Source of the DNA: an uncultured Clostridia bacterium
GTDB lineage: Bacteria > Bacillota > Clostridia > TANB77 > CAG-465
Length of the DNA stretch: 64,000 nt
Assembly: GCA_934130325.1 (NCBI GenBank)
Contig: CAKOYA010000001.1
Coordinates: forward strand, 33,725 to 97,724
Direction of reading: 5' to 3'
Of this stretch, positions 3,382 to 21,463 are shown piece by piece (within the stretch, counting starts at the first letter, position 1; the number at the start of each line of letters is the position of its first letter). Below the pieces are notes generated by a model that saw nothing but the letters and a program-made list of their open reading frames with translations, was not told where the DNA came from and ran no database searches. The position numbers and the translations under genes are program-made.

Positions 3382-5007
3382 TTATGAAATTGACTCATTA
3401 GAATTATTAACAAGAATTTCTCTTAGTTTTTTATTTATATCTTTTATTAATTCAATGGGTTTTGAAAAATAATATCCTTGTACGTATTTAACACCAAGTC
3501 TAGCAACTAGCTCCAATGTATCATTATCTTCAATTCCAAGTGCAATTATTTCACATCCCTTTGATATAGAATATGTAACTAAATTAGATAAGAATCTTTG
3601 CTTTTCAACGTCATCTCCAATATCCTTTATTAATGAAATATCTGGAACTATATAATCAATATCGAGTAAATTTAATTCATCTATTGTGAATGTTCCTATA
3701 CCAAAATTATCAAAAGCTACCAAGCCATTTTTTTGATGTATTGAAGAAATTATTTTTTGTAATTCTGTTAAGTCCTTTTTCTCATAGTTTTGAAATTCCA
3801 TAACTATTTTATTCCTTCCCATCATATCATATAATCTTGGTTTATTAATATATTTGGAGTAACTATTTAAATCACAATTTACAAATAATAAGTTAGAATC
3901 CTTCTCGTGTAGATTCTCAAAAGACTCTATTGAATTAATCATCATTACCTGTTGTATTTTTTCATACTTTCCTATTTGGTTTGTATAATTAATAAAATCT
4001 AATATTCTTATTGATTTAGTATTTTCTATTCTAGTAAATACTTCATATCCCAATACCTTTTTTTCATCTATATTTATAATTGGTTGATATACAGGTTTTA
4101 TTCTCCTTCTATTTAATACATCCTCTATTAACATATCTAATTCAGGTTTAGAAATTGTACTAATTGTATCAACATTACCGTTAGGACCTATAGGTGTATC
4201 CTCATTTTCATCAACTGCATCATTTTCGTAATTCATGTATTTGTTTATAAACTCAATATATTTTGTCTTAACTAATTTGAATTTATTATACACGTCAACA
4301 TTTTTAGCCCTAGCATCTGAATCTTTCACGTCTAACAATAAGTAGAATAATTCTTTACTATTATCTAATTCACTTGCTAAAAACTTCATATTATCATACG
4401 TTATCTCACCTTCATTTAAGTATTTATCATGATACTTAATTAAAGTTAAAATAATCTTTTTCTCTTCTTCACTGAAATAAAATCTATCTAAAATTCCCTT
4501 AGCAAGTTCTACTGATTTATCATCGTGAGTTGCAAAACTATCTGTACCATCATCTAAAATCACCTTTACATAAGGCTTACCTATATCATGTAACAACATA
4601 GTCCATTTTAATAATTTTTTTTGCCATTTTCCTATAGGAATTTGTGGATTTCCAACACACTCAATTGTTGTAAGAATATGCTTAAATACCCCATACTTAT
4701 GATAAGAAGAATTTTGTTGACAATTGATAACGTCTTCACCATATTGATTTTTTACATAAAATTCAGGAAAATCTCTTACAAAAATTCTTGTTTGACTTAA
4801 TTTAAGTAATAAATATGCCACATTATCATCTTCTAAGACAGAAGTATATATATTAGTCTTTTCCTGTGGATTAGAATCATACATTTTTAGCCTATTAATC
4901 AAAGATTCTACTCTTGCTTTTTCTTTAATATCCATTAAATCTGCAGCAATATTTTGTGTATCCATCTCATCCATAAAATCTTCAAACTCTTCCATAATAA
5001 ACCTCAC
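3382..5007 (-). CDS. HD-domain + EAL-domain protein (putative c-di-GMP phosphodiesterase, EVF variant of EAL motif)
   Basis: N-terminal H...HD...H..D (HKYGVFKH / LLHDIGKP / ATHDDKS / KYHDKYL); C-terminal YQPIINIDEKKVLGYEVFTRIE...DNFGIGTFTIDELNLLDIDYIVPD...IALGIED...QGYYFSKP typical of EAL. Confidence 0.7.
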   Translation of the reverse strand: MRFIMEEFEDFMDEMDTQNIAADLMDIKEKARVESLINRLKMYDSNPQEKTNIYTSVLEDDNVAYLLLKLSQTRIFVRDFPEFYVKNQYGEDVINCQQNSSYHKYGVFKHILTTIECVGNPQIPIGKWQKKLLKWTMLLHDIGKPYVKVILDDGTDSFATHDDKSVELAKGILDRFYFSEEEKKIILTLIKYHDKYLNEGEITYDNMKFLASELDNSKELFYLLLDVKDSDARAKNVDVYNKFKLVKTKYIEFINKYMNYENDAVDENEDTPIGPNGNVDTISTISKPELDMLIEDVLNRRRIKPVYQPIINIDEKKVLGYEVFTRIENTKSIRILDFINYTNQIGKYEKIQQVMMINSIESFENLHEKDSNLLFVNCDLNSYSKYINKPRLYDMMGRNKIVMEFQNYEKKDLTELQKIISSIHQKNGLVAFDNFGIGTFTIDELNLLDIDYIVPDISLIKDIGDDVEKQRFLSNLVTYSISKGCEIIALGIEDNDTLELVARLGVKYVQGYYFSKPIELIKDINKKLREILVNNSNESIS

Positions 5008-5121
5008 TTTTAACTAAGTATAATATTACTATAAAATATATAAAATTGCAATATTTTAAATTTAATTATAACTTTATTTTTCCAAGTACTACATTATTTT
5101 ATTAAATTTCTACCATATTAT

Positions 5122-5156
5122 TGACTTTTTTTGTTTTTTTATGTATAATGTACTAG
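5122..5156 (+). promoter_or_regulatory. sigma-A promoter TTGACT-17-TATAAT for rplM-rpsI; ~70-nt leader follows
   Basis: ttgact ttttttgtttttttatg tataat read directly. Confidence 0.65.
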
Positions 5157-5231
5157 TATTAATAGTTACTTAAACTAAACCCCGGAAAGTTTTACGTAGC
5201 TAAATTTTATATTTAGGAGGAAATTTTAGTT

Positions 5232-5666
5232 ATGAATAATACTACACATAGTGTAAAAGCTAAAGAAATTGTAAAAAAATGGTACATAATAGATGCAGCA
5301 AACAAACCTCTAGGAAGAGTTGCAAGTGAAGTTGCTAAATTACTAAAAGGTAAACATAAACCTACTTACACTACAAATTTAGATTGTGGTGACAATGTTA
5401 TAGTAATAAATTCTGATAAGATAGTTTTAACTGGTAACAAATTAAATCAAAAAGTTTACAGACACCACTCTGGTTATGTTGGTGGAATGAAAGAAATTAA
5501 ATATAGTGACCTTATGGCAAATAAATCAGATAAAGCTTTAATGGTTGCAATAAAAGGAATGCTACCAAAAAATTCTTTAGGTAGAAAAATGCTTACAAAT
5601 GTAAGAATATATAAAGGTAGTGAGCATAAAAATGAAGCTCAAAAACCAGAAGTATGGGAATTTTAG
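5232..5666 (+). CDS. rplM: 50S ribosomal protein L13
   Basis: WYIIDAANKPLGRVAS...; AGGAGG RBS. Confidence 0.95.
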   Translation: MNNTTHSVKAKEIVKKWYIIDAANKPLGRVASEVAKLLKGKHKPTYTTNLDCGDNVIVINSDKIVLTGNKLNQKVYRHHSGYVGGMKEIKYSDLMANKSDKALMVAIKGMLPKNSLGRKMLTNVRIYKGSEHKNEAQKPEVWEF

Positions 5667-5678
5667 GAGGATGTAAAA

Positions 5679-6074
5679 ATGGCAAAGAAAGAATATATAT
5701 ATGCAACAGGTAAAAGAAAATCATCTATAGCTAGAGTTAATATAATACCTGGTACAGGTAAAATAACTATAAACAAAAAAGATATGGATGAAGTTTACAC
5801 TTTAGATACATTAAAGGCAATTGTTTTAAAACCTTTTAAAGTAGCTAATATGATGGAAAAATATGATGTTATTGCTACAGTAAATGGTGGTGGATTCTCT
5901 GGTCAAGCTGGTGCTATTGCACATGGTATTGCTAAAGCTCTTGCAACAACTGATCCAGAAGTTCGTACAATATTAAAGAGAAATGGTCTTCTTACTAGAG
6001 ATTCTAGAGTAAAAGAAAGAAGAAAATATGGTCTTAAAAAGGCAAGAAAAGCACCACAATTCTCAAAGAGATAA
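5679..6074 (+). CDS. rpsI: 30S ribosomal protein S9
   Basis: [19 protein letters not shown]...[17 protein letters not shown]. Confidence 0.95.
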
Positions 6075-6146
6075 AAAAAGCTTTTATCAAAAGCAATTTA
6101 ACCTCAGAAGTTTCAAGGCTTCCGAGGTTTTTTGTTGCTGCTTGGT
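6075..6146. repeat. direct repeat copy A (attL-like): rpsI 3' end and terminator
   Basis: aagagataaaaaaagcttttatcaaaagcaatttaacctcagaagtttcaaggcttccgaggtttttt is ~88% identical to 16318-16390. Confidence 0.8.
6101..6135 (+). terminator. rho-independent terminator of rplM-rpsI (cctcagaag...cttccgagg + T-run)
   Basis: stem-loop followed by ttttttg. Confidence 0.7.
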
Positions 6147-6537
6147 AATTTTTACTATACAATGTCTGCAAATATTGATATTTCAACACTTCTATTTTTT
6201 ATTTGTTTGCCATTTAAATTTGTAATATACAAGTAATATGCTAGTAATATACAAATTTATATTTCAACTTTCTATAATTGTTAATATATCTATATCACAA
6301 AAAAGCTAACTATGCTCCACTATTATTTTTCGCATAATTAGCTTTGTATTTTATTAATACAACGAATCGTTATTTAAATAAATTGTAATTTGTCGAGATG
6401 ATTATAATATAAAAAATTATAAGTTTTTTGAAATTATTTATATTCTTATATAATGGTCCTCAACGTATATTTAATCATTTGATTTAATAGCCTCCATTTT
6501 TCACTATTAAAAAACACTATTATTATAGCAATATTTT

Positions 6538-7149
6538 TTAAATTTCTAAATTTATTAATTCACAAATATCCTTAATTTTTTTATAAAATTTATCGCATTT
6601 TCCAAATCCATATCCTGCCCAAATAAAAGGTAATCCATTTATTTTTGCTGATTCATAATCTTTTATAGTATCTCCAACATACACAGATTTCAAAATATTA
6701 TTTCTTTCTAATACTATCTTAATATTTTTTTCTTTACTAAAACCTGTATTTCCAGAACATTCATAATCTTTAAAATATTTTTCAATATCATAATATTTCA
6801 AAAATGCTTCTATATATCCTGACTGACAATTACTTACAATATACAAATCATAACTTAATGATAATTTTTTTATAGTTTCTAATGTATTTTTATAGATATG
6901 ACCGCCATTCTTTATTAAATATTCGTTTTCTTTTTCTTGACATTCTGTAATAAATTCATTTCCTAGACTATTATTTCCTTTAAATAAATATTTAATTATT
7001 TCAATTTTAGTATATCCCATTATTTTCTTAATTGTATCTTCATCAATCTGAATTTTATAATTTTGAGCAATATCTTTCCAAACTTGTTCAATCTCTTTTG
7101 ATGTATCCAATAGTGTACCATCCAAATCAAATATTATAGCTTTTTTCAA
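6538..7149 (-). CDS. HAD-superfamily hydrolase (beta-phosphoglucomutase/phosphatase-like)
   Basis: MKKAIIFDLDGTLLDT motif I; 203 aa. Confidence 0.75.
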   Translation of the reverse strand: MKKAIIFDLDGTLLDTSKEIEQVWKDIAQNYKIQIDEDTIKKIMGYTKIEIIKYLFKGNNSLGNEFITECQEKENEYLIKNGGHIYKNTLETIKKLSLSYDLYIVSNCQSGYIEAFLKYYDIEKYFKDYECSGNTGFSKEKNIKIVLERNNILKSVYVGDTIKDYESAKINGLPFIWAGYGFGKCDKFYKKIKDICELINLEI

Positions 7150-7153
7150 CTTT

Positions 7154-8093
7154 TTATTTCTCCTTTACTAAACATGTGCTTATTATTTCCAAATCGCCTA
7201 TAATCTTATATTTTCCCAATGTTGCAGGAATTATAAATGTATCTCCCTTACTTAATATATATTCATTATTTGAATCATATATTTTCCCAGATCCTTTTAT
7301 AACATTCATTATTAACAATGTATTTATATTACTACTAGACGAAAATTTATATTCTATAACAATTTTTTTTACATCCAAAAATTTATTTTTTATTACTCGA
7401 TTAGTTCCTTTAAAATTATTTGTTTGATATTTTTTTGCTTTCCTAAAAAACTTTATATTTTCAATAGCCTTTTCAATGTGTAATTCTCTACTTTTACCAC
7501 ATTTATCAACTCTATTCCAATCAAATATTCTATATGTAATATTACTATTTTGTTGAATTTCTAGTATTAGTATATTTTTTAATATTGAGTGTATTGTGCC
7601 AGAAGGAATATATAGCTTCTCCTTCATTAATATCTATGTAATTCAATTGTTCTGCTATTTGAGTATCTTTTAATAATTCAACAAATTCTCCTTTTGTTAG
7701 ATTATTTTTAAATCCTGCTATGACTTGTGATTCATTTGAGCTTTCAACTATATACCATAATTCATTTTTTTCATTAATAATATCACTTGGGTGTACTTGA
7801 ATTGATAAATTTTCTTCAGCGTCTATAAATTTTATTATAATTGGAAAATCTTTTCTATTAATAGCATACCTTCCAAATATTTTTTCTTTTAAATAAATAT
7901 TTGGAAAAAGTTCAAATAAAGTTTTTCCTTTAAATTCTCCATTTTTTACTTTAACAGATTCATCTTTATTAATTGCAATCTCAATACTTTCAGCAATATT
8001 TCTATTTTCATTTTCCTTATTATATTCTTTTTCTAATCTAGTTCCACCCCATATGTATTCTTTATATATAGAATCAACAAACATCACTTCCAT
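7154..8093 (-). pseudogene. manA: mannose-6-phosphate isomerase class I, frameshifted in a (TA)n tract near 7598-7605
   Basis: ORF 7545-8093 carries IWGGTRL...QVHP...INEGEAIY, and ORF 7154-7627 continues YIPSGTIHSI...ITYRIFDWNRVD in another frame; the junction gctatatattcc is one TA unit short of the expected gctatatatattcc. Confidence 0.7.
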
Positions 8094-8108
8094 TTTTTTG
8101 CCTTTCTA

Positions 8109-8603
8109 TTATTTATTAGCATTCAAATATTTTAAGCAATATTCAAAAAATTCTTTATGGCTATTTGAAAATTTTTCTTCTTGTATCATTTTTTGTATTT
8201 CCTCAATTGTCGCCCATTTCACATCTTCTACTTCTTCTTTTTGAATTTTTATTCTATTTATATCTACATCTTCTTTCAAATAATAAATATCAACAAAATC
8301 ATCTTCTGTTTTTATTGTTTTAAATAATATTACATTTTCTTCTACTACATTAATGCCTAGTTCTTCTTTAATTTCCGTTATAATCCCTTGCTTACTTGTT
8401 TCTCCTGATACAGGATGTCCTCCTGTTGTTGCCCACTTTCCATCTTTCTTTTTTACTCTTTTTTGAAGTAAAAATTCTTTTTTACCATTTTGTATAAAAA
8501 CAACTACTGTTATATAATAACGTCCTTTTGGTACATCCTGTCCTTTATAAATTGTTTCTCCTGTTAATTTTTTATTTTCATCATACAAATCTCTTAATTC
8601 CAT
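8109..8603 (-). CDS. NUDIX hydrolase
   Basis: Nudix box GGHPVSGETSKQGIITEIKEELGI. Confidence 0.8.
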   Translation of the reverse strand: MELRDLYDENKKLTGETIYKGQDVPKGRYYITVVVFIQNGKKEFLLQKRVKKKDGKWATTGGHPVSGETSKQGIITEIKEELGINVVEENVILFKTIKTEDDFVDIYYLKEDVDINRIKIQKEEVEDVKWATIEEIQKMIQEEKFSNSHKEFFEYCLKYLNANK

Positions 8604-8627
8604 GTTTTTATCTCCTTATAAAATTTA

Positions 8628-9770
8628 TTATTTTATCATATCAATATACGAATTTTTAAATGTATTTATATCATATTGTATTTGCCATTCTTTAAGAGGC
8701 TCTTTTCTTTCAATATATTCTTTATTTTTTATAGTTTCCAATATTTTATTTTTTAATTCTTCACTATTATTTTTAAATATATAATTATAATCATTTCCAT
8801 TTACTAATTCATTAAATGTTGGTATATCATTTAATATTGTATATATTCCCAATGATAATGATTCTAACGCAGAATATCCAAAACTCTCTGATCTACTTGG
8901 TAATACGCATATGTCTGCGATCTTATACACTTCTGACATATAATCAAATCTTATTATTTTTATAGTTATATTATTTATACTTGCTTGTCTTTTTAATGAA
9001 TCTAAAAATTTTTCATACTGTTTATCTAATCCAGTATAAATAATCTCAATTTTTGCTTTTTCAGCATTTTCCATTAAACAACAAGCATCCAGTAATAATT
9101 GAGGCTGTTTTTGATTTGGCTCTAACCTTTGAGGAACAATTATCTTAATTTTTTTCTTATCTATATTATATTTCTCACAAATTTCATCCTTATTCTTTTC
9201 TGTTTTTAACCTTTCTTTATCTATTGCGTGAGGAATAAAATTTATTTTACATTCAGTTAATTTGCTATATTCATTAGCATAGAACTTTGATGGAGCTACA
9301 AATATTGTTTTATCATCGTCATTGTATCTTTTCATTATATCAATTACTCTTTCAAAAGATTTCTCGCCCCAAGCAAGAATATATTCAAATGGATTAGTAT
9401 GTATTGTGAATATTCTTTTTTTATCCTTCCAAGCTTCTAAAACCAATAAAGAATTTAATTGTATAAAATCATATTTTTCCATATTAATTTTATTTTCAAG
9501 TTTTCTTGCCAAGTTTGAATATGATGTATCTGTTTCAAAATTTCCAAAAGCTTCTTGAACTATATATTCATCTGCTTCTCCCTTTATATTAAACAGGTCT
9601 ATATTTATATAATTTACACCATCTTCTCTATGTGTATTTCCTGAAAACATATATACGTCTACTTCATTTCCGTTGTCTGCAAAAGCTTTCGCAATATCCA
9701 TTACAAATCTTTCTGTTCCTCCAACTGCTTTTTTAGATATCGCCCAAGTATTTACTATCGCTATTTTCAT
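8628..9770 (-). CDS. glycosyltransferase family 1/4 (GT-B)
   Basis: MKIAIVNTWAISKKAVGGTERFV... N-domain; C-domain ...VLPSRSESFGYSALESLSLG; ~380 aa. Confidence 0.75.
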   Translation of the reverse strand: MKIAIVNTWAISKKAVGGTERFVMDIAKAFADNGNEVDVYMFSGNTHREDGVNYINIDLFNIKGEADEYIVQEAFGNFETDTSYSNLARKLENKINMEKYDFIQLNSLLVLEAWKDKKRIFTIHTNPFEYILAWGEKSFERVIDIMKRYNDDDKTIFVAPSKFYANEYSKLTECKINFIPHAIDKERLKTEKNKDEICEKYNIDKKKIKIIVPQRLEPNQKQPQLLLDACCLMENAEKAKIEIIYTGLDKQYEKFLDSLKRQASINNITIKIIRFDYMSEVYKIADICVLPSRSESFGYSALESLSLGIYTILNDIPTFNELVNGNDYNYIFKNNSEELKNKILETIKNKEYIERKEPLKEWQIQYDINTFKNSYIDMIK

Positions 9771-9801
9771 TTTTTTCACCCTCATCTCTTTTTACTTCAT
9801 T

Positions 9802-10899
9802 TTATTTTTTAGGTAATTGCCTATTGCCTTTTTTCGGATCAATTTTTATTCTATCTTTTAAATTCTTTTCTTTTTTCTTCAAATCGTATGAATTTTGAAT
9901 TATACTTAAGTAATTCTCATTAGAGTTTCTTTCAGAATATTCATAAGCTCTCTTGCTTAACTCTCTATATGTTTCTTTATCTATATTAATTCTTTTTGCT
10001 TTTTCTCCTCCTGGTATAACTATTCCCATTCCATATTGTTTTACCTCTTGTGAAAAATCTATAACATCTGATATTATTACAGGTTTTCCACGAACTAATC
10101 CGTCTATTAATGAATTTGGCACATCTTTTACTACCCTTTTCTGTGGCACAAATGCAACAAAATCAGAATCATCAAATAATTGTGTTAAAATTTGAGTATT
10201 ATTATGTATTTCTAATAGTTTAACTCTATCATATACTCCCTTCTCTTTCGCGATTGCATTAAAATTTTTTGTATCATTATCTCTTAATGGAATAGTTAAT
10301 GTGTAATTAGGATTTTCTTTTAATAATTCTAGTAAATATTCTAATCCTCTTTCTTTTATTGCATCTCCCTCTTTATTATTCCAACTTGCAAATAATATAT
10401 TTACATTATCGCTACTATATTCTTTATTGCTTTTTTTTCTTTCTATTTTAGATGGTGTTGGAGTAACTTCAATCTTTTCTTCATCAATTCCACATTCAAT
10501 TAATAACTGTTTATGCTGTGGTAATTCAACAAAAACTTTTTTTAAATTTTTATATTTTTTTAAATGTTTCGCATACTGTTCAGTAGGTCTTCTATACATT
10601 GATACATATAACTGATTTCCTGCTTTATTAAATAAAACTCTTTTCCATAAACATGGTTCTTCTTCAAAAACATGAACTTTTTCTTTTTTTGCATTATATG
10701 TTTCTTTTATCGCTTGAAAAACATATTTTATTGGGGAATACACATAAATATTATCTTCTATATCTTATTTTTGCATAGCTTGTTGTCCCATAAATCTTGT
10801 TGCTGAAATAATCTTAGCATTATTAGCTTTTGAAATCAACTCCATTTGATTTGACACAGCCTCTTTATATCTTACAAAAAAATCATTAATTACTAACAT
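9802..10899 (-). pseudogene. glycosyltransferase-like (GT-B C-terminal domain) interrupted by an in-frame TAA at 10765-10767
   Basis: 44 codons from ATG 10899 (MLVINDFF...GQQAMQK) then TAA, then the same frame continues DIEDNIYV-YSPIKY... to 9802; C-terminal region FVPQKRVVKDVPNSLIDGLVRGKPVIISDV resembles the GT1 family. Confidence 0.5.
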
Positions 10900-11888
10900 A
10901 ATTCTATTTCTCCATCTATTATACTATATAATTTTTTTAAAATCATTTGTTTTTCTTCAAATTTATTTTCATATCTATTTACTATACTATAGCGATCTTC
11001 TCTCGGTTTTAAATCTATAAAACTTTTTTCAATTATGTTTTTATTCAATCCATATTTATCAGCTTTTTCAAAAATATTTAATTTTTTTATAGCTTTTACT
11101 ATTTCTGAAACATCTCTATTCTGCATTAATCCCATTGCTAATATTCCAATTGAAACAGACATTCCGTGTGGTACATTTATTATTCTTTCTATTTCCTTTG
11201 CCATTATATGTTCAGAGCCACTTTCTGGTCTTCCTGTTCCATACAAATTAGTTATATATCCTGCTATACCAATAAATTCAAATAATTTAATATTATTTTT
11301 TACTATATCCTCAAATTCATTATTGTTTACAAACTTAATAACATCTTGCAATAATTTTTCTGCCATATTATATATATTGTAATCAATTTTTTCATCTATA
11401 TCTTTTTGAGCAATTTTCCAATCATAAAGAGCTGTATATATTGAGAAAACATCAGCTAGTCCATATATATTTTCTTCTTTTGACAAATTTAACAATTCAT
11501 CATCAATTATTATTGTTTCAGGAATTTTTGCCTCCAAAGTTACTTTTTTGTTTTCTTTTATTAATGCAACTTTATTTGTTGCATATGAATTTGTTGATAA
11601 CATTGTTAGAATACAAGTAAATTTAACATTTAATTTATATGCTATATATTTTCCAATATCAATTGTACTTCCTCCACCATAACTAGTTACTGTTGTTATG
11701 TTTTTATTTTCTTTAATAAACTTTTCTATCTTATCAATGTTTTTGGTAAGATTATGCCAATTAACCATTAAACATTTATTATTATCTATATTATTTTTTT
11801 CAATAGATGTTGGCGAATATATGACTAACTCATTTGGTTTCAAATTTTCAATATATTTTTTACTATTATATTTTTGAATAACCTCCAT
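10893..11888 (-). CDS. iron-containing alcohol dehydrogenase family (glycerol / sn-glycerol-1-phosphate dehydrogenase-like)
   Basis: GGGSTIDIGKYIA nucleotide-binding motif, His-rich metal site HIMAKEIERIINVPHG; 331 aa. Confidence 0.6.
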   Translation of the reverse strand: MEVIQKYNSKKYIENLKPNELVIYSPTSIEKNNIDNNKCLMVNWHNLTKNIDKIEKFIKENKNITTVTSYGGGSTIDIGKYIAYKLNVKFTCILTMLSTNSYATNKVALIKENKKVTLEAKIPETIIIDDELLNLSKEENIYGLADVFSIYTALYDWKIAQKDIDEKIDYNIYNMAEKLLQDVIKFVNNNEFEDIVKNNIKLFEFIGIAGYITNLYGTGRPESGSEHIMAKEIERIINVPHGMSVSIGILAMGLMQNRDVSEIVKAIKKLNIFEKADKYGLNKNIIEKSFIDLKPREDRYSIVNRYENKFEEKQMILKKLYSIIDGEIELC

Positions 11889-11917
11889 AAAATTATTGTT
11901 TTTGATTATATTTCTCC

Positions 11918-13003
11918 TTATAAATATTTTTCTAACTCCTTATTTTCTTGTACCTTTTTTATTAAACTTGGTAATTCTATCATCTTTTCTTGTTCTACTA
12001 TAAGCAAAACATTATTACTTTTTACTATATTTAATCCTCGTGTTCCCGCAATTGCAAAAATCGTATTGTCATCATCATTATATATATTACAAGATTCTAC
12101 ATCTTCTATTACAGAATTACCTTTTATAGTATTATTGTTCTGATCTTTTTCTTGAATTTTAAAAAAATCATTAATACTACCTATATCAAGCCATTCAAAT
12201 TCTCCTTTTATCATTTTTATATTACTTGCTTTTTCAAGTATCCCTTTATCAATAGAAATAGCATCTACTTTTTGATATACTTCTTTCAAGGTATTAATAT
12301 TATTTTTTAAACCATTTATTATTACATCTTTATATTTATATATTTGTGGCAAAAATTTTTGAAAATTATTTAATATTGTAGAAATTTCCCATATAAACAT
12401 TCCACTATTCCAATAGTATTTTCCACTTTCTAAATATTCTTGTGCTTTTATATATATTGGTTTTTCTTTAAATTCTTCTACAATATTGCATTTTAGATTA
12501 TCATCATAATGATATTTTATATATCCAAATCCAGTTGCAGGATATGTAGGCTTTATTCCTATTGTAACCAAATTTTCGTGGCTATTTGCTAAACTAATTC
12601 CTTCTTCGATATTTTTTATTAGTTTTTCTGATTGTTTTATATAATGATCCGAAGCTAAAATGGTCATTGTTCCATTTCCTTTTTGGTTTAATATTTTTAT
12701 AGAAGTATAAAAAATACACATTGCCGTGCTTTTTGACATAGGCTCATAAATAATATTTTCTCTTGGTATTCTATAGTCAATATATCTTTCAGCAAGTTCC
12801 TTTTGTTCTATACTTGTTATTACAAAAATATCATCATATTCAAATAAATTTTCTATTCTTTTTATTGTTTCATTTATCATTATATTATCAGAATATAAAT
12901 TCAAATATTGTTTAGGCTTATTAGTGGTACTAATAGGCCACAAACGACTTCCTTTTCCTCCTGCTAATATTAAAGCGTATCTTTTTTCATTATTATCTTT
13001 CAT
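11918..13003 (-). CDS. manC: mannose-1-phosphate guanylyltransferase (nucleotidyltransferase, no PMI domain)
   Basis: LAGGKGSRLWPISTTNKPKQYL N-terminal signature; 361 aa. Confidence 0.7.
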   Translation of the reverse strand: MKDNNEKRYALILAGGKGSRLWPISTTNKPKQYLNLYSDNIMINETIKRIENLFEYDDIFVITSIEQKELAERYIDYRIPRENIIYEPMSKSTAMCIFYTSIKILNQKGNGTMTILASDHYIKQSEKLIKNIEEGISLANSHENLVTIGIKPTYPATGFGYIKYHYDDNLKCNIVEEFKEKPIYIKAQEYLESGKYYWNSGMFIWEISTILNNFQKFLPQIYKYKDVIINGLKNNINTLKEVYQKVDAISIDKGILEKASNIKMIKGEFEWLDIGSINDFFKIQEKDQNNNTIKGNSVIEDVESCNIYNDDDNTIFAIAGTRGLNIVKSNNVLLIVEQEKMIELPSLIKKVQENKELEKYL

Positions 13004-13574
13004 TATTATCCTCTTTCAACTCTTTTAAGAAATTAACATAAGATTTACTTTGTTTCTTATTTTCCTCTTTTATTATAGCATTATAACCTTTTCTAACATA
13101 ATCATTTATTGTATATTTTTCATAGTTATTTATTGTTTCTAATGTTCTTTTTGATTCCTCAATATTATCAGAAATATGTATTAAATTATCAAAAAAATAG
13201 CCTTCTATTTTAGGTGCATATTCAGTTCTAATTCTTTGTTTTACTTTTCTTGCTTCGATACATTGAATTTTCCCATCAGCACTCTTTTGATACGTTGGAT
13301 TATCTATCTTAAAAACAAATACCACAATTTTTTTATTATCGGTATTCATATTTTTAATTTTGTCATATATATATCCACCCTCGTAAGCCTCTTCATCTCC
13401 TTTATAACAATCTAATACAAATTGTTCATATTTTTCTCCTAGATCCAATACTTTTACTTGTATAACATCTTCCATAATAGCTATTTTTAACATCATTTCT
13501 CTAGCATATTTATTTCCCATATTCCACAATATTCCAATAGGATATTCACTATCATAATTTTTTATTATTTGCAT
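12993..13574 (-). CDS. hypothetical protein (193 aa), translationally coupled upstream of manC
   Basis: ORF only; overlaps manC start by 11 nt; no recognisable motif. Confidence 0.4.
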   Translation of the reverse strand: MQIIKNYDSEYPIGILWNMGNKYAREMMLKIAIMEDVIQVKVLDLGEKYEQFVLDCYKGDEEAYEGGYIYDKIKNMNTDNKKIVVFVFKIDNPTYQKSADGKIQCIEARKVKQRIRTEYAPKIEGYFFDNLIHISDNIEESKRTLETINNYEKYTINDYVRKGYNAIIKEENKKQSKSYVNFLKELKEDNNER

Positions 13575-13741
13575 AGTTTCGCTCCTTTTCTCATTTCACA
13601 TAATATTGTATCATTTTGTTATTGCTTTGTCAATTTTTTCCTGTCCAACTTTATACTGTCGTATAAAAAATTTGTAGACATTCTTTCTATTTTATATTAT
13701 AGTTATTTTTTGTTATCATAACTTTATATTTAAAAATAACA

Positions 13742-14737
13742 TCATGTTATATACTTTCTATGTGAATTTTTCACATTATTCTGATTTACCATTGCATATT
13801 CCATTGTCGTATCTATTTTTATGTGCCCTAATAATTTTTGAACTTGTTCTATTGGCATACCTTTATCAATAGCCATCGTTGCCATTGTTCTTCTAAATTT
13901 ATGTGGATGCACCTTGTTTATGTTTACTTGTTTTCCTAAATTTCTAATAGCAATTTCAATCCTTGATATTCCTAATCTATTATAAGGTTTTATTAATGAC
14001 ACAAATAATGCTTCATTGTTATCCATCCTTGTTTCTAAATATTTCTTTATATACATTTTACTCTTTGCACTAAAATAAACTTCTCTTTCACTATTACCTT
14101 TACCTAAAACAATACAGCTTCTTTATTGAAAATTTATATCAGCTATATTTAATCTAGTAAGTTCTCCAACTCTCATACCAGTTGAAATTAATAGTTCTAA
14201 TATTGCTAAATCTCTTACATTTGAGCAAGTATCTCTTAACCTTTCTAAATTCTCATCTGTTAATGTTTCTTTAACTCTTCTAGTCGTTTTTACTTTGTGA
14301 ATCCTTCTAACTGGACTTTTTACAATATAATCTTCGTTTTCTAACCAGCCAAAGAAACTTGATAATGTTCTTCTTATATTATCTGTTGTTACCATACCTG
14401 CATTTGAATTACTTTTATACTCGGATAAATAGTTTCTTAACGTTTCGGTAGTAATCTCATCTATTGGAAGATTTACAGTATCAAGCATTTTATTTATATT
14501 ATCTCTGTAATAATTTAAAGTTCTTATCGAACAACCTTCAATGTCTTTAGATGATATAAATCTATTCAAAAGTTCTTTATTATTCTTTTGTATTTCTTCC
14601 TTTTGACTTTGTTCTAGTACTTCAATTCTATAATATATGCATATTTCTGTAAGTTTTTCTTTTAGTTTTATTCTTTGGTTGTTGTCTAAAAAATCTGTAG
14701 TTTCATCAACTACTTTTTCAACAAATAACTCTTTCAA
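13742..14737 (-). pseudogene. tyrosine site-specific integrase (XerC/D-like) with an in-frame TAA at 14123-14125
   Basis: N-part ...ISTGMRVGELTRLNIADINFQ then TAA, then the same frame continues RSCIVLGKGNSEREV...HPHKFRRTMAT...LLGHIKIDTTMEYAMVN (R..HxxR..Y catalytic set). Confidence 0.8.
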
Positions 14738-15134
14738 AAAACTCCCCTCCTTCTAAATTTAAATTACTTCTAATTTTGCAATATACAGAACTATACTTAT
14801 ATTATACTATGTTTTTATCGTTTTACATAACTTCTTAAAATGAACAACAAAAATGAGTATATTTAAAGTATATATACCCATTTTTTCATCTATTCCATTC
14901 TATATTTCATTTAAATCCAGAAACACAACCTCAGCGACAACTTACTATTTATTTATTATAATTTTATCTTTTTTCTTGACTTTTTATCTTTAAATAGCTT
15001 ATAATAAATATAGGAAATGACAAATCCACAAACGTGGTTTTGCCGAATTAAGTTTGAAAAAACTCACACCTAACTCGCCAAAGTTACAGATGTGAGCTTT
15101 TTTATTTTTACAGTATATTTTTATCAAATATTTT

Positions 15135-15536
15135 TTAATGCTTATATGCACTATAATTCCAATCATCCCCAATCACATATAAAAGTGATGGACATTTCTT
15201 GGACGGTACTAAAAGCATTCTACATTTTTGTTTATTAAATCTAAATACTATAATTTTACTATCATTTGTTAACCCTAATTCTTTTCTTATTCTTTCATCT
15301 ATTACTACATTTAATTCATATAATGGTAACATCTCATATCCTACTGATTTAGGCTTATTTTGAAAGTCTACCAATCTTACATTTGAAAGTTCCTTAAAGT
15401 TTTCGTATAATTCATATATTATTTCGTTACATTTTTCTTTTGTCTTTTTTATTATTTTTTCTATTGTATATTCTTTTGAATTAACAGAATACTTAAATGA
15501 AAGAATTATATTTTCATCATGTCTACATTCTAGCAT
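15135..15536 (-). CDS. uncharacterised 133-aa protein, candidate PanT-type toxin paired with Panacea antitoxin
   Basis: start overlaps the stop of the DUF4065 gene (15536); no known domain recognised. Confidence 0.45.
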   Translation of the reverse strand: MLECRHDENIILSFKYSVNSKEYTIEKIIKKTKEKCNEIIYELYENFKELSNVRLVDFQNKPKSVGYEMLPLYELNVVIDERIRKELGLTNDSKIIVFRFNKQKCRMLLVPSKKCPSLLYVIGDDWNYSAYKH

Positions 15537-15997
15537 TATATATTGCTATAGTTCTCCTTGAAATAATTTTGTATTGCTCTTTTGTCTATAACATGGTTTC
15601 TGTCTGTTTCTCTCCATGGTGTTTCTTGGTGTGTCATATCTCTTAGTTTCCATGCTGTATATTGTCCAAACCTATCATAAACTTTTTTTAATAATACTTT
15701 AGTATCTTCATCTAATTTATCATCATAATCTTCTTCATATTGTATTCCATTTGATCCAAATATTCTAAATTTATCATATATTTTTCTGATTACTGGTCCA
15801 TGTTCCCATGCTAAAAAATTTTCTTTTATTAAGCTCTCATCATTTTGGGCTAAATAACATCCTTGTGCATAATATAATAACTTTTGCAATTTTAAGTTTG
15901 TTATAAATTCAGAATCTCCAAAATTCATTTGTTTTCTATTTTCATTTAAAAACCAATTTGCAATGTCTATTGCACTATATTTTCCTTTATTGAACAT
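15536..15997 (-). CDS. Panacea-domain (DUF4065, SocA/GepA-like) antitoxin
   Basis: AIDIANWFLNE...ITNLKLQKLLYYAQGCYLA...FLAWEHGPVIRKIYDKF matches the DUF4065 pattern. Confidence 0.8.
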   Translation of the reverse strand: MFNKGKYSAIDIANWFLNENRKQMNFGDSEFITNLKLQKLLYYAQGCYLAQNDESLIKENFLAWEHGPVIRKIYDKFRIFGSNGIQYEEDYDDKLDEDTKVLLKKVYDRFGQYTAWKLRDMTHQETPWRETDRNHVIDKRAIQNYFKENYSNI

Positions 15998-16317
15998 AGA
16001 ATTCCCTACTTCTTTTAGATTTATAATATATTTTTTAACAATAATATATTATATAATAAATTTAGCATTTATTTTCATACATTATAAAACTTTTGTTTGC
16101 TTTTGTCAATAATTTCTATCTTTTTCTTATATATTCTTTATAATATGGTCTGTTTCCTATTACATTATAACATAATGCTTCATAAAATCAATAATTCTTA
16201 ACTAAATTTTTATATAATTTATATTCTTTTAACCATTACTTACATCTAAAATATAATAATCTTATAATATACAAAAATGTCATTTTTTATTGATAAATCA
16301 ACCTTTGTAATTTAGTA

Positions 16318-16390
16318 AGAGATAAGAAGAGCTTTTATCAAAATCAATTCAACCTCAGAAGTTTCAATACTTCCGAGGTTTTTATTTTTG
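16318..16390. repeat. direct repeat copy B (attR-like) of the rpsI 3' end/terminator
   Basis: aagagataagaagagcttttatcaaaatcaattcaacctcagaagtttcaatacttccgaggttttta; even keeps the K-R-stop codons of rpsI. Confidence 0.8.
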
Positions 16391-16493
16391 CTTGCCCTTT
16401 AAATTTAGTAAAAGGTACTATTTTATTATTGTATTATTCAAAACCTCGAAAATTTTAATATTTTACTTAAAATATTAGATTTATATACAAAAT

Positions 16494-16517
16494 ATCCAGT
16501 TCAACTATGAACTGGAT
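16494..16517 (-). terminator. perfect 10-bp inverted repeat atccagttca-acta-tgaactggat with T-run on minus strand (terminator of the 170-aa gene); second copy at 18355-18378
   Basis: palindrome read directly; lies at the duplication boundaries. Confidence 0.6.
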
Positions 16518-16529
16518 ATTTTCCGTTAC

Positions 16530-17042
16530 TTAATTAAGTAAATATTTTTTTACTAGCGCCTTAGAAAGCGCCATTTGAGATTTTTTTGTAAACACAAATT
16601 TGTTTTTTATATCTCCTCCGGTTTCAAATTCCATACCAATCAAAATTTCAACGATTTTAGCATTTATCATTTTCATACCCATTGGATCTTCTGGGTACTG
16701 ATTTATGACCATGTACGGAGTTATATTAAAATCGTCATATATATGATGGTTGTCAATTTTACAAAACGCAAATCCTGCCATCACAATGTCCTCAAGAGTA
16801 TTGTTATAAGTAGGATCAATATCCTTTATGTCAAGCACATCAAATGCTATTCGTACCTGACACCTATTAAGTGAATAATGCGGATCATAGCATACCCTCA
16901 TTGTTCCTATTAATTCCCTTGATTCTTTGCTAAATATCTCCAAATAAACTACAGGTGGAACGTCCTTTGGACGATCGATACACTCTACTGATAAGTAGAT
17001 TTTTCCGAAGTGGTTTAACATTGCAATCCACTCTCCTTTCAA
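16530..17042 (-). CDS. hypothetical protein (170 aa), copy 1
   Basis: ORF; identical copy at 18391-18903. Confidence 0.5.
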   Translation of the reverse strand: MKGEWIAMLNHFGKIYLSVECIDRPKDVPPVVYLEIFSKESRELIGTMRVCYDPHYSLNRCQVRIAFDVLDIKDIDPTYNNTLEDIVMAGFAFCKIDNHHIYDDFNITPYMVINQYPEDPMGMKMINAKIVEILIGMEFETGGDIKNKFVFTKKSQMALSKALVKKYLLN

Positions 17043-17173
17043 AAATAATAATTATATTATATTACGGTAAACTATTTTTGTCAAGTATTTTTAAAAAGAT
17101 CACTAATATTACTGAATTTTTTATAAATAATAAATAGACACTAATTATATAATATAATTAATGTCTACTAATA

Positions 17174-18334
17174 TTATTGTTTATTTTGGGTAGTTGTATT
17201 AGTAATTGTAGAATCATTTCCAAGTGTAACTTCAATTTCTTGTTCCTTAGACGCTCTAACTATCTTTAATTTTATCTTATCACCGATTTTTTTAGTATTT
17301 TTATACTCATTTAATTTTTCCATAGTTTTTGATTCTTGACCATCAATGGCTATGATAATATCACCCTTTTGAATTCCTGCTACTGCTGCAGGTGAATTAG
17401 CATATATCTGTGCCACATAAACACCTTCTGTTAAATTATTTCTCTTAGCAGTAGTTTCATCAATATCAATTCCACCTATACCAATATATGGTCTTTCTAT
17501 CTTTCCTTTTGATATTAATTCGTCAATTACAGTCAGTGCATCATCTGTAGGAATCGCAAATCCTAAGCCTTCAACTTCTGTAGCTCCAATTTTTACTGTA
17601 TTTATTCCAATTACCTCACCTGAAGAATTAACTAATGCACCACCACTGTTTCCTGGATTTATAGCGGCATCTGTTTGTATTAACTTATATGTTCTTCCAT
17701 CAGTTGTAATCTTCCTATTTAAAGCTGATATATATCCAACTGTTACACTACCAGCAAACTCTTGACCTAATGGATTACCTATTGCTACAGCTAATTCTCC
17801 AACTTTTAAATCTGAGGATTTACCAATTTTTGCTGCCTTTAATCCTGTTTTATCTATCTTTATAACTGCTAGATCTGTAGTTTGATCCCCACCAACTATT
17901 GTTGCCTCTACTTCCTCATCCGAATTTGGGAAAGTAACAATAACTTTAGCAGTTGAATTGTTAATAGCAGACTCTATAACATGATAGTTTGTTATTATAT
18001 ACCCATCTTCCTTATATATTATGCCAGATCCTTCTTCATCAGATTCTGAAAGTGAGCCTAAGATATTTTGTGAAATATAATTTACTTTTACACCCACGAT
18101 TGATGGGCCTACATTTTCTGCTATTGCTACTACTGGATTTTCTACACTAGCAAATTCATATGATTTTGTTACTGACCCATCACTAGTTATCTGATTGGTA
18201 TTATTGGTTATTTTATTATCAATAGCAACATATGTAACTAAACTACCAAATACTCCTCCTATTAAAGCTATAATCAATATGACAACAACACTAGGTCCAG
18301 ATTTCTTTTCTTTAAACATAATTTTTTCATCCAT
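17174..18334 (-). CDS. htrA: HtrA/DegP-family serine protease with N-terminal TM anchor and C-terminal PDZ, copy 1
   Basis: catalytic H (ITNYHVIE), D (TDLAVIKID), S (GNSGGALVN); PDZ region GVYVAQIYANSPAAVAGIQKGDIIIAIDG. Confidence 0.9.
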   Translation of the reverse strand: MDEKIMFKEKKSGPSVVVILIIALIGGVFGSLVTYVAIDNKITNNTNQITSDGSVTKSYEFASVENPVVAIAENVGPSIVGVKVNYISQNILGSLSESDEEGSGIIYKEDGYIITNYHVIESAINNSTAKVIVTFPNSDEEVEATIVGGDQTTDLAVIKIDKTGLKAAKIGKSSDLKVGELAVAIGNPLGQEFAGSVTVGYISALNRKITTDGRTYKLIQTDAAINPGNSGGALVNSSGEVIGINTVKIGATEVEGLGFAIPTDDALTVIDELISKGKIERPYIGIGGIDIDETTAKRNNLTEGVYVAQIYANSPAAVAGIQKGDIIIAIDGQESKTMEKLNEYKNTKKIGDKIKLKIVRASKEQEIEVTLGNDSTITNTTTQNKQ

Positions 18335-18390
18335 AAAATTATCCCCTCCTACATATCCAGTTCAACTATGAACTGGATATGTTCTGTTAC

Positions 18391-18903
18391 TTAATTAAGT
18401 AAATATTTTTTTACTAGCGCCTTAGAAAGCGCCATTTGAGATTTTTTTGTAAACACAAATTTGTTTTTTATATCTCCTCCGGTTTCAAATTCCATACCAA
18501 TCAAAATTTCAACGATTTTAGCATTTATCATTTTCATACCCATTGGATCTTCTGGGTACTGATTTATGACCATGTACGGAGTTATATTAAAATCGTCATA
18601 TATATGATGGTTGTCAATTTTACAAAACGCAAATCCTGCCATCACAATGTCCTCAAGAGTATTGTTATAAGTAGGATCAATATCCTTTATGTCAAGCACA
18701 TCAAATGCTATTCGTACCTGACACCTATTAAGTGAATAATGCGGATCATAGCATACCCTCATTGTTCCTATTAATTCCCTTGATTCTTTGCTAAATATCT
18801 CCAAATAAACTACAGGTGGAACGTCCTTTGGACGATCGATACACTCTACTGATAAGTAGATTTTTCCGAAGTGGTTTAACATTGCAATCCACTCTCCTTT
18901 CAA
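18391..18903 (-). CDS. hypothetical protein (170 aa), copy 2
   Basis: identical to 16530-17042. Confidence 0.5.
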   Translation of the reverse strand: MKGEWIAMLNHFGKIYLSVECIDRPKDVPPVVYLEIFSKESRELIGTMRVCYDPHYSLNRCQVRIAFDVLDIKDIDPTYNNTLEDIVMAGFAFCKIDNHHIYDDFNITPYMVINQYPEDPMGMKMINAKIVEILIGMEFETGGDIKNKFVFTKKSQMALSKALVKKYLLN

Positions 18904-19034
18904 AAATAATAATTATATTATATTACGGTAAACTATTTTTGTCAAGTATTTTTAAAAAGATCACTAATATTACTGAATTTTTTATAAATAATAAATAGAC
19001 ACTAATTATATAATATAATTAATGTCTACTAATA

Positions 19035-20195
19035 TTATTGTTTATTTTGGGTAGTTGTATTAGTAATTGTAGAATCATTTCCAAGTGTAACTTCAATTTC
19101 TTGTTCCTTAGACGCTCTAACTATCTTTAATTTTATCTTATCACCGATTTTTTTAGTATTTTTATACTCATTTAATTTTTCCATAGTTTTTGATTCTTGA
19201 CCATCAATGGCTATGATAATATCACCCTTTTGAATTCCTGCTACTGCTGCAGGTGAATTAGCATATATCTGTGCCACATAAACACCTTCTGTTAAATTAT
19301 TTCTCTTAGCAGTAGTTTCATCAATATCAATTCCACCTATACCAATATATGGTCTTTCTATCTTTCCTTTTGATATTAATTCGTCAATTACAGTCAGTGC
19401 ATCATCTGTAGGAATCGCAAATCCTAAGCCTTCAACTTCTGTAGCTCCAATTTTTACTGTATTTATTCCAATTACCTCACCTGAAGAATTAACTAATGCA
19501 CCACCACTGTTTCCTGGATTTATAGCGGCATCTGTTTGTATTAACTTATATGTTCTTCCATCAGTTGTAATCTTCCTATTTAAAGCTGATATATATCCAA
19601 CTGTTACACTACCAGCAAACTCTTGACCTAATGGATTACCTATTGCTACAGCTAATTCTCCAACTTTTAAATCTGAGGATTTACCAATTTTTGCTGCCTT
19701 TAATCCTGTTTTATCTATCTTTATAACTGCTAGATCTGTAGTTTGATCCCCACCAACTATTGTTGCCTCTACTTCCTCATCCGAATTTGGGAAAGTAACA
19801 ATAACTTTAGCAGTTGAATTGTTAATAGCAGACTCTATAACATGATAGTTTGTTATTATATACCCATCTTCCTTATATATTATGCCAGATCCTTCTTCAT
19901 CAGATTCTGAAAGTGAGCCTAAGATATTTTGTGAAATATAATTTACTTTTACACCCACGATTGATGGGCCTACATTTTCTGCTATTGCTACTACTGGATT
20001 TTCTACACTAGCAAATTCATATGATTTTGTTACTGACCCATCACTAGTTATCTGATTGGTATTATTGGTTATTTTATTATCAATAGCAACATATGTAACT
20101 AAACTACCAAATACTCCTCCTATTAAAGCTATAATTAATATGACAACAACACTAGGTACAGACTTCTTTTCTTTAAACATAATTTTTTCATCCAT
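19035..20195 (-). CDS. htrA: HtrA/DegP-family serine protease, copy 2 (G12V relative to copy 1)
   Basis: identical to copy 1 except KKSVPS vs KKSGPS. Confidence 0.9.
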   Translation of the reverse strand: MDEKIMFKEKKSVPSVVVILIIALIGGVFGSLVTYVAIDNKITNNTNQITSDGSVTKSYEFASVENPVVAIAENVGPSIVGVKVNYISQNILGSLSESDEEGSGIIYKEDGYIITNYHVIESAINNSTAKVIVTFPNSDEEVEATIVGGDQTTDLAVIKIDKTGLKAAKIGKSSDLKVGELAVAIGNPLGQEFAGSVTVGYISALNRKITTDGRTYKLIQTDAAINPGNSGGALVNSSGEVIGINTVKIGATEVEGLGFAIPTDDALTVIDELISKGKIERPYIGIGGIDIDETTAKRNNLTEGVYVAQIYANSPAAVAGIQKGDIIIAIDGQESKTMEKLNEYKNTKKIGDKIKLKIVRASKEQEIEVTLGNDSTITNTTTQNKQ

Positions 20196-20209
20196 AAAAT
20201 TATCCCCTC

Positions 20210-21463
20210 CTACATTTCATTATTACTACCTGCAGCCACAGCTGTAGAGAATGCTATTTGCAGATTATATCCACCTGTATAGGCATCAATGTCTAAAACC
20301 TCTCCTGCAAAATATAAATTTTTTATAATCTTCGATTCCATCGTCTTAGGATTTACTTCCTTAACATTAATACCTCCACATGTTATAATTGCAAATTCTA
20401 GTGGCATTAAGTTATTTATCTTAATTGTTAAACTTTTTATACATTTTACTAACCTTTTTCTTTCTTCTTTAGTTATTTGATGCACTTTCTTATTTTCCTC
20501 AATACCAGACATAATTATAATTTGCGGTATAAGTTTTTGAGGTAGCAAATCATTTAAACTATTTTTAAATTCCTTATTTGAATTCTTATCAAAATCCCTG
20601 CAAATTCTCTTATCTAACGTTTTTTCATCTAAAGCTGGTTTTAAATCTATAATCGCACATATTTTACCCTGCTTTAATTTTTCAGAAACATTATCATACC
20701 TATTTAATATACTACTTGAACTCAAAACAACAGGTCCAGTTATTCCAAAATGTGCAAACATTAATTCACCAAAATCTTCATAAATATTCTTTTTTATATC
20801 CAAATCAAACAAACTGTATCTTATATTTTTAAGAGTCAAGCCTTGTAATTTTTTACATATACTATCACTACTTTTTAAAGGTACTAACCCTGGCAATAAT
20901 TTTTCAATACTATGCCCAACATTCTTAGAAATTGTATATCCATCACCTGTACTACCAGTTGTAGAATAACTCATACCACCAGTCGCTAATATACATTTTT
21001 CACAATATATTTTTTCACCATTATCAAGTTTTACTCCAATCAAAGAATTTTCGTTTAAAATAATGTTAGCAACACTAGAATTAAATAAAATTTTGACTCT
21101 TTGTTGTTTTAATTTTTCTTTTAGAGCGCTTACTACCTCATTTGCATCATCTGATACTGGAAATACCCTATTTCCACGTTCAATTTTAGTTTTTACACCA
21201 AGTTTCTCGAAAAAATCTATAGTATCGTTGTTATCAAAATTATTAAAGCTACTATATAAAAATCTATAGTTCTTAACAACATTATTTTTAAAATCTTCTG
21301 AATCACCAGCAAAAGTTAAATTACAACGACCTTTTCCAGTTATTTTTAACTTATTTCCAAGACTATCTGTTTTTTCTATTAACAATACATCATTTCCTTG
21401 GGTAGAAGCAGTAATAGCTGCCATCATCCCAGCTGCTCCACCCCCTATTACAATAACTTTCAT
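20210..21463 (-). CDS. HI0933/BaiN-family FAD-dependent flavoprotein
   Basis: MKVIVIGGGAAGMMAAITA...GKGRCNLT dinucleotide-binding N-terminus; 417 aa. Confidence 0.7.
   Translation of the reverse strand: MKVIVIGGGAAGMMAAITASTQGNDVLLIEKTDSLGNKLKITGKGRCNLTFAGDSEDFKNNVVKNYRFLYSSFNNFDNNDTIDFFEKLGVKTKIERGNRVFPVSDDANEVVSALKEKLKQQRVKILFNSSVANIILNENSLIGVKLDNGEKIYCEKCILATGGMSYSTTGSTGDGYTISKNVGHSIEKLLPGLVPLKSSDSICKKLQGLTLKNIRYSLFDLDIKKNIYEDFGELMFAHFGITGPVVLSSSSILNRYDNVSEKLKQGKICAIIDLKPALDEKTLDKRICRDFDKNSNKEFKNSLNDLLPQKLIPQIIIMSGIEENKKVHQITKEERKRLVKCIKSLTIKINNLMPLEFAIITCGGINVKEVNPKTMESKIIKNLYFAGEVLDIDAYTGGYNLQIAFSTAVAAGSNNEM

Follow-up and report, generated by a model that had tools for sequence, protein, structure and literature searches.

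We analysed the rplM-rpsI operon of an uncultured Clostridia bacterium, and the island directly downstream of it, within a 64-kb stretch of metagenome-derived DNA (the window, to which all positions refer unless another locus is named). Both ribosomal-protein genes lie on the plus strand and are identified by Pfam (rplM, 5232-5666, Ribosomal_L13; rpsI, 5679-6074, Ribosomal_S9; E of 1e-46 to 1e-48 for the operon's two matches), and exact-protein look-up placed the exact RpsI sequence on 9 metagenome contigs. The end of rpsI recurs downstream as the second copy of a direct repeat, and the 10.2-kb segment between the copies, with genes on the minus strand only, was inserted at the rpsI 3′ end. 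It holds a non-coding tail next to rpsI, a set of glycosylation genes, a XerA-like tyrosine recombinase pseudogene and a putative toxin-antitoxin (TA) pair.

The repeat is 67 nt long (left copy 6066-6132, right copy 16317-16383, both given on the plus strand), with 61/67 positions identical (91%); by blastn inside the window the pair matches at E=4.4e-22, the next-best match reaching E=0.004. Both copies open with AAGAGATAA, which in the left copy forms the last two codons and the stop codon of rpsI (its final 9 nt), and both fold as a hairpin followed by a U-run (left, -24.3 kcal/mol, z -4.2; right, -17.5 kcal/mol, z -3.6, against shuffled controls). The left copy serves as the present rpsI terminator, and the right copy is marked by the variants GATAAGAAG and a loop AATAC. 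Because the repeats duplicate the rpsI end together with its terminator, the gene retains an intact 3′ end and terminator. A first-pass annotation of this DNA had described two ~70-bp repeats at ~88% identity, each holding the rpsI end and the terminator hairpin; the repeat is real and its content was read correctly, with coordinates off by a few bases. A palindrome spans the rpsI stop codon in both copies (GATAAAA-AAAGC-TTTTATC, 6069-6088 and 16320-16339), with a G-U-compatible change between them, and L015, L025 and L037, three other Clostridia, have a similar one; the palindrome is a candidate for the core site of a recombinase specific to rpsI.

Insertion at the rpsI 3′ end

A scan of one genome per species yielded 43 close relatives with RpsI 77-96% identical to that of the window, all of them uncultured Clostridia metagenome-assembled genomes (MAGs) or Clostridium sp. 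CAG:465 / CAG:1219. Island genes were found within 10 kb downstream of rpsI in 0 of these 43 species, and the recA-EAL-rplM-rpsI order on the left flank is kept in most of them; absence of the island combined with conserved left synteny identifies the segment as an insertion. In the closest relative (L011), conserved convergent genes (YunB-like, a 511-aa gene and veg) directly follow rpsI, and in L020 the HtrA-w20210-w21464 order of the window's right flank is retained about 4 kb from rpsI. The insertion proposed in the first-pass annotation is thus borne out, both by the relatives, among which the contrary case of a gene order common to all was not seen, and by the collinear occurrence of the recombinase and cargo unit in unrelated contexts (below). 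Composition and codon usage, which the same annotation had offered as a check, do not separate the island from its flanks: island GC content is 0.241 versus 0.269, and gene GC and third-position GC (GC3) lie within 1 standard deviation (sd) of the flanks, so that composition tells little in this 25% GC genome.

[quoted passage not shown] Small integrase-less inserts also occur at rpsI in other Clostridia, flanked by a second copy of the host's own rpsI end and terminator: 1.5 kb with a 59-nt repeat in L029, 2.3 kb with 90 nt in L054, 1.0 kb with 65 nt in L089, 1.8 kb with about 29 nt in L035 and 0.5 kb with 43 nt in L015. The repeats of L029, L054 and L089 share their starting codons in rpsI with that of the window. 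An iterative hidden Markov model (HMM) search detected integrases beside rpsI in three distant lineages alone (L070, L085, L088); they lie just downstream of the gene, are unrelated to the window's family and are only 23-24% identical to the window integrase. Another mini-element at this hotspot is the ~700-nt insert after rpsI in L027 (10460-11080 of that locus), which is flanked by ~70-nt terminator-region repeats and contains three AAGTAAnTAAC direct repeats beside the proximal copy and one ~55-aa open reading frame (ORF); its arm repeats differ.

The XerA-like recombinase and its cassette arrays

The recombinase gene of the island (13742-14737, minus strand) is a pseudogene with a single in-frame TAA (14120-14122) in place of Glu205 (GAA), a residue invariant in intact homologs (alignment A2). 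Its catalytic residues R189, K213, H279, R282, H305 and Y314 are all intact and it is 96% identical to an intact homolog, P0002, which indicates that inactivation was recent; gene calls on a 78-kb metagenome scaffold (scaffold_640, L186) are split in the same way. Scored on intact P0002, the protein exceeds the cut-off of the XerA-like NCBIfam model NF040815 (243.6 bits vs 220) and falls far below those of the integron-integrase models TIGR02249 (83 vs 265) and NF011946 (37 vs 435), and its PDB matches run likewise, weak for IntI4 (E=2e-7) against E=1e-25 to 1e-27 for XerA. The repaired protein has >8000 database relatives, among them hundreds of intact 331-aa proteins at 87-96% identity; such intact homologs are very abundant in gut metagenomes, and the highly conserved recombinase numbers thousands of copies in those of humans and animals.

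We compared 95 loci with integrases 58-96% identical to that of the window, 15 from exact-protein look-ups (L091-L105) and 80 from a metagenome scan (L106-L185). None of the 95 has rpsI near the integrase. Identical recombinases recur in many contexts with differing flanks, inside mobile-element-rich regions, and DNA homology to the window covers the gene plus ~200 nt upstream and ends at the stop codon, save in six contigs that share the cargo. The nearest annotated relatives (57-61% identical) occur in type I restriction-modification (R-M) loci of lactic-acid-bacteria plasmids, set between inverted hsdS genes, and are simple recombinases acting on short sites. The idea that the island's own integrase placed it at rpsI loses support on several counts: the gene is a pseudogene, and its family is not rpsI-specific and uses short sites of the AAATTACAA type. 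Many large contigs start about 250-330 nt upstream of the recombinase gene, suggesting repeats or heterogeneity at that position.

These short sites emerged from loci with identical integrases that differ by whole modules, the junctions of which share the motif AAATTACAA. The end of a unit reads ATAATC(A)TCnCnAC-AAATTACAA. The integrase unit opens with TAGTAAGTTGTCGCTGAGAT, an inverted repeat of the unit-end arm (18/20); in many other units TAAGTTG stands at the start, ahead of a hairpin and a TATAAT-like box, a predicted promoter-like sequence. Intergenic copies of the core number 109 on the integrase strand versus 16 on the opposite strand, and the ends of high-scoring segment pairs (HSPs) between loci (≥95% identity) fall within 12 nt of a core in 29 of 149 cases, against 1.06 expected, a 27-fold enrichment. 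The raw count of the motif (227 vs 40) was discarded as evidence because conserved intragenic copies inflate it, and the intergenic counts and the breakpoint test took its place. Clean insertion polymorphisms lie at the sites (L099 vs L101; L098/L102 vs L099), one cassette start was found behind four different upstream units, and units with different cargo sit immediately 3′ of the stop codon of the same queH/GNAT gene. The 37 unique inter-site units have a median length of 1.45 kb, and their ORFs are co-oriented with the integrase 78:6.

Judged from these comparisons, units appear to be gained, lost and reshuffled exactly at short sites, in arrays of 0.7-2.6-kb co-oriented units, and the predicted recombinase site pair is ATAATCATCTCGACAAATTACAA with TAGTAAGTTGTCGCTGAGG. 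Among L091-L185, arrays can be followed at L099 (9806-14741), L101 (144-9217) and L112 (14488-14975), and array cargo includes radical-SAM/TehB, cupin/DUF6512, ASCH/MazG-like and glycosylation genes.

Composition and history of the island

A position weight matrix (PWM) built from 77 unique sites (training maximum 31.5 bits) has a single hit in the window, at 6377-6413 on the minus strand (core 6383-6391). This canonical cassette-end site, ATAATCATCTCGAC-AAATTACAA, scores 31.0 bits, matches the cassette ends of about 19 other loci by BLAST and closes the unit that comprises integrase and cargo. At its other end lies a unit junction (14929-14965, minus strand), where the integrase-unit start TAGTAAGTTGTCGCTGAGG (14947->14929) comes after a degenerate cassette end, AAAATTATAA (14965->14956); the start sequence repeats the cassette-end arm imperfectly and in inverted orientation. 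From this junction on, the DNA is homologous to other integrase loci, the integrase and cargo unit starting at 14947, and L112 has a canonical site where the window has the degenerate one. Beyond it, 14952-15107 (minus strand) is the 3′ remnant, a terminator hairpin and spacer, of a mini-cassette that is intact in L161 (97% identical) and L112 (83%). A third site, the bare core AAATTACAA at 16305-16313 (minus strand), lies 3 nt from the right repeat and marks the upstream boundary of the array. The intact mini-cassette is ~480 nt long (L112 14497-14975; L161 9480-9840). Its small hydrophobic peptide (MFMVKVILFLILSLMFSLTLNVALTAVLYKN...) is encoded ahead of a strong terminator hairpin, a layout reminiscent of type I toxin-antitoxin modules, and only the 3′ part survives in the window.

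The integrase and cargo unit is mobile, being collinear at 81-85% nucleotide identity in six other contigs, including L148, L171, L122 and L119. Its minus-strand cargo consists, by Pfam, of a HAD phosphatase (6538-7149), a Nudix hydrolase (8109-8603), GT4 (8628-9785) and GT1-like (9802-10743) glycosyltransferases, a glycerol-1-phosphate-dehydrogenase-like iron-dependent alcohol dehydrogenase (10893-11888) and a mannose-1-phosphate guanylyltransferase-like NTP transferase (11918-13003), with NCBIfam matches of the glycosylation cargo below equivalog cut-offs. A phosphomannose isomerase (PMI) pseudogene (7154-8093), frameshifted in an (AT)n run near 7600, lies between the first two, and is missing from both contigs that span its position (L148, L171). 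The remaining gene (12993-13574) encodes a 193-aa protein with no family assigned, for which PHROGs and PADLOC returned nothing. The cargo probably makes a mannose/glycerol-phosphate-containing glycoconjugate. The integrase and sugar-metabolism genes of the first-pass annotation are thus present between the repeats, the integrase with its in-frame TAA and the PMI gene with its frameshift.

The other unit contains a SocA/Panacea-domain gene (15536-15997, minus strand; PF13274, 84.3 bits vs a cut-off of 25.7) that overlaps by 1 nt a 133-aa ORF, its putative partner (15135-15536, minus strand). The NCBIfam SocA equivalog is matched below threshold (76 vs 190), the 133-aa ORF has no match in Pfam, NCBIfam, PHROGs or PADLOC, and the pair was found in 0 of the 95 other integrase loci. 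We regard the two as a putative toxin-antitoxin pair; of the TA module proposed earlier, the antitoxin-type Panacea domain stands, and the partner lacks a recognisable family in the four libraries.

Between the left repeat and the array lies the tail (6133-6382, plus strand), 250 nt of non-coding DNA that contains a hairpin at about 6302-6345 (z -3.9 against shuffles) and three degenerate direct repeats of the AATATGCA type. Downstream of the rpsI terminator, L037, L025, L015 and L035 have DNA collinear with it (alignment A1, 77% mean column identity). The tail occurs in 0 of the 95 integrase loci and is no part of the array, so that it probably represents the rpsI-proximal arm of an rpsI-targeting element family, no integrase of which is present here. 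In L015 and L035 the distal repeat copy comes after the tail, and L025, compared with L011, has a 6.7-kb insert that lacks an integrase and begins with the tail. Rfam gave nothing credible over 5000-17200, its sole match being a spurious mir-9 (E=0.24). Directly after the tail hairpin, L037 carries a tandem array of ~22-nt units (CTATCAAGCTTTATCAAAC...; 10670-10812 of that locus), within which the contig ends.

We therefore read the island not as the single coherent element first described but, with a probability of roughly 60%, as a horizontally acquired and now immobilised composite at the rpsI 3′ end, in a bacterium related to Clostridium sp. CAG:465, composed of the tail and a two-unit array. 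In the order of events that we infer, an element that brought a copy of the rpsI end plus terminator would have integrated site-specifically at the last rpsI codons, duplicating the segment and leaving rpsI intact. A XerA-type cassette array would then have inserted into, or replaced, the interior of this older element. Its unit 1 would be the TA-like pair and its unit 2 the 8.6-kb recombinase gene plus glycosylation operon, bounded by the unit start TAGTAAGTTGTCGCTGAG, the unit end ATAATCATCTCGAC-AAATTACAA and the bare core beside the right repeat. Finally, the recombinase nonsense codon and the PMI frameshift would have locked the island in place, and they indicate an island that is fixed and decaying; the TA-like pair may favour its retention.

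Several observations weigh against this composite history. Exact-protein look-ups with RpsI, both HtrA copies and a 163-aa right-flank protein found no same-species empty site, the same-species contigs being either island-occupied or ending inside a repeat copy; nor was a circular junction or excised form recovered among those examined. An integrase able to explain the rpsI repeats is absent from the island, and none was found in the tail-bearing relatives. The AAATTACAA 9-mer occurs at chance frequency in the window (4 observed, 5.6 expected), and the core at 16305 lacks the extended consensus, although the probability of a correctly oriented core within a few nt of a repeat edge, estimated from the 9-mer frequency, is about 1e-3. 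Neither XerA-type sites nor the 9-mer are enriched downstream of rpsI in relatives, and for this reason the nested-insertion step draws on a single locus. Assembly error could in principle account for the stop codon and the frameshift, although the split genes recur on scaffold_640. Finally, either repeat copy may be ancestral. The right-copy variants (GATAAGAAG and the AATAC loop) agree with relatives' native rpsI terminators, among them that of L026, which has no tail; a scheme with the right copy as the ancestral terminator and the left as element-supplied was considered and is weakened by the collinearity of the left copy and tail with relatives.

The classical alternative is a single step, in which the island's own integrase inserted a circular element with an attP of ~67 nt identical to the rpsI end, and 6133-16316 is one element. 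It would account for the integrase gene between the repeats and for the rpsI 3′ end that they restore; the family core lies 3 nt from the right repeat, and the rpsI stop region (AAGAGAT.A) loosely resembles the family-site arm (GAGATGA). We nevertheless hold it unlikely: integrases 58-96% identical lie near rpsI in 0/95 loci, the family recombines at short sites without long repeats and has simple invertases as its nearest annotated relatives, the TA segment and the tail fall outside the conserved integrase unit, and inserts with the same kind of repeat but no integrase sit at rpsI in other lineages. More doubtful still is a Campbell-type event, in which circular DNA, either an excised array or a plasmid, bearing a related strain's rpsI-downstream copy entered by a single RecA-mediated crossover that duplicated the homologous segment. 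The divergence of the copies (91%), the weak collinear similarity that continues past the 67 nt into the tail and right flank, and the likeness of the tail to rpsI-downstream DNA of other species would fit such an origin, but that extension is only marginal (p about 0.02-0.06 against shuffles), and the shared starting codons of the repeat in four unrelated lineages point to a site-specific process. Moreover, 67 nt at 91% identity is a poor RecA substrate.

Two further explanations dispense with an insertion altogether. An ancestral, vertically inherited cluster beside an independently arisen terminator duplication would be in keeping with the flank-like GC and GC3 of the island genes and with the presence of the island on every long-enough contig of this species. 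It is very improbable, and already contradicted by the absence of the cluster from this position in 43/43 related species; the integrase and cargo unit occurs in other genomic contexts, and the second repeat copy includes rpsI coding bases. We give hardly any credence to an assembly artefact in which metagenome contigs were joined chimerically at a terminator-like repeat that they share. The DNA does come from metagenomes, and several contigs break exactly at the repeat copies, but at least three assemblies of different samples (L001, L002, L003) contain the left junction (rpsI-repeat-tail-HAD), and the right junction with the whole island is found on the 78-kb scaffold (L186). The longest exact stretch common to the two copies is at most 17 nt, which assembly at usual k-mer sizes would not collapse. 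The composite island stays our preferred account of the locus.

Relation to known systems

Like the streptococcal ICEs and IMEs at rpsI (e.g. IMESag-rpsI; Tyr_4, Tyr_5, Tyr_7), the island targets the last codons and preserves the gene end (PMC5357655, PMC4701971), and the long repeats of some families, the frequent accretion and the integrase-less remnants known there have counterparts at the rpsI of Clostridia. It differs in its uncultured Clostridia host, in the absence of relaxase or conjugation genes, and in its XerA-like recombinase, the only integrase present, which is unlinked to rpsI elsewhere. It extends to uncultured gut Clostridia a hotspot known from streptococci and represents a typical end-state, in which the integrase is dead, a cargo gene decays and a TA-like pair would have a stabilising role; as an island it adds little.

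The recombinase and cassette architecture, integron-like or CIME-like (after the cis-mobilizable elements, CIMEs) but neither, is the more important lead. As in integrons, a tyrosine recombinase accompanies co-oriented 0.7-2.6-kb units that are exchanged at a unit-end site with adjoining hairpins. Unlike integrons, the recombinase is XerA-like and not IntI, the core is AAATTACAA and not GTTRRRY, the units have their own predicted promoter-like sequence and a 5′ hairpin with no attI/Pc platform identified, and the recombinase gene is itself a site-bounded unit co-oriented with the array. CIME/ICE accretions and tycheposon-like arrays likewise place integrase-less units in tandem with a recombinase unit at the same attachment (att)-type sites, an arrangement that implies mobilisation in trans; here, however, units are far smaller, short dif-like sites take the place of tRNA or gene-end repeats, and conjugation functions are absent. 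Closest in enzyme are the Xer/dif system, pdif modules and hsdS-shuffling recombinases (pRV500, pW142), members of the same NF040815 family (57-61% identity to those associated with R-M loci), and the sites share their architecture of two inverted arms around a short central region. The window family nonetheless is not a single housekeeping copy at a terminus dif and has no hsdS genes nearby, and the mostly direct orientation of its sites (109 vs 16) implies excision and integration, not inversion.

Integrons are reported to be essentially absent from this phylum, and a literature search for integron-like systems in Clostridia and for the motif found no description. We tentatively suggest, as a possibility short of an even chance, that the island's core exemplifies an integron-like system for gene capture in gut Clostridia, apparently undescribed, in which a XerA-like recombinase would insert, excise and reshuffle small self-promoted cassettes at dif-like sites (arm-AAATTACAA|TAAGTT-arm), building defence, metabolic and glycosylation arrays in varied chromosomal and mobile sites. 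Such a system, if true, would be a functional analogue of integrons in this phylum. Its confirmation would reveal an integron-like gene-capture route in Firmicutes-type gut bacteria, offer a handle for annotating 'orphan' accessory gene blocks in gut MAGs and provide a compact recombinase/site pair as a possible tool.

Some members of the recombinase family are of interest in their own right. P0001 (378 aa) has an internal 47-aa tandem duplication over the first catalytic Arg region and GKG motif (A2 columns 168-214). In L091 (6463-16881), a ~9.7-kb segment with a large serine recombinase at its end appears to split an ahpC-like gene into a 51-aa fragment and a gene of 195 aa; the segment includes the 96%-identical unit of a XerA-like recombinase and resembles a nested mobile element. 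Plasmid hits H11 and H12, from the rumen methanogen Methanosphaera sp. ISO3-F5 (NZ_CP118754), an archaeon, encode a recombinase 61% identical to the bacterial family, which hints at cross-domain spread.

The surroundings of the island also vary. In L013, L015 and L018 the rplM-rpsI operon is inverted relative to EAL-recA (rpsI, then EAL and recA, on the same strand), unlike in the window and most other relatives, indicating a neighbourhood prone to rearrangement. On the right flank of the window, 109 nt beyond the right repeat, begins a tandem duplication of 1863 nt (16492-18354 and 18353-20215; 99.7% identical, 5 mismatches) that comprises the gene for the 163-aa protein and an HtrA-like protease. 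Two copies are present in the window and in scaffold_4490 (L187), and a single copy in scaffold_640 (L186, with a 335-nt gap) and in L010 from another sample, a difference in copy number which indicates that the duplication is either strain-variable or collapsed in assembly.

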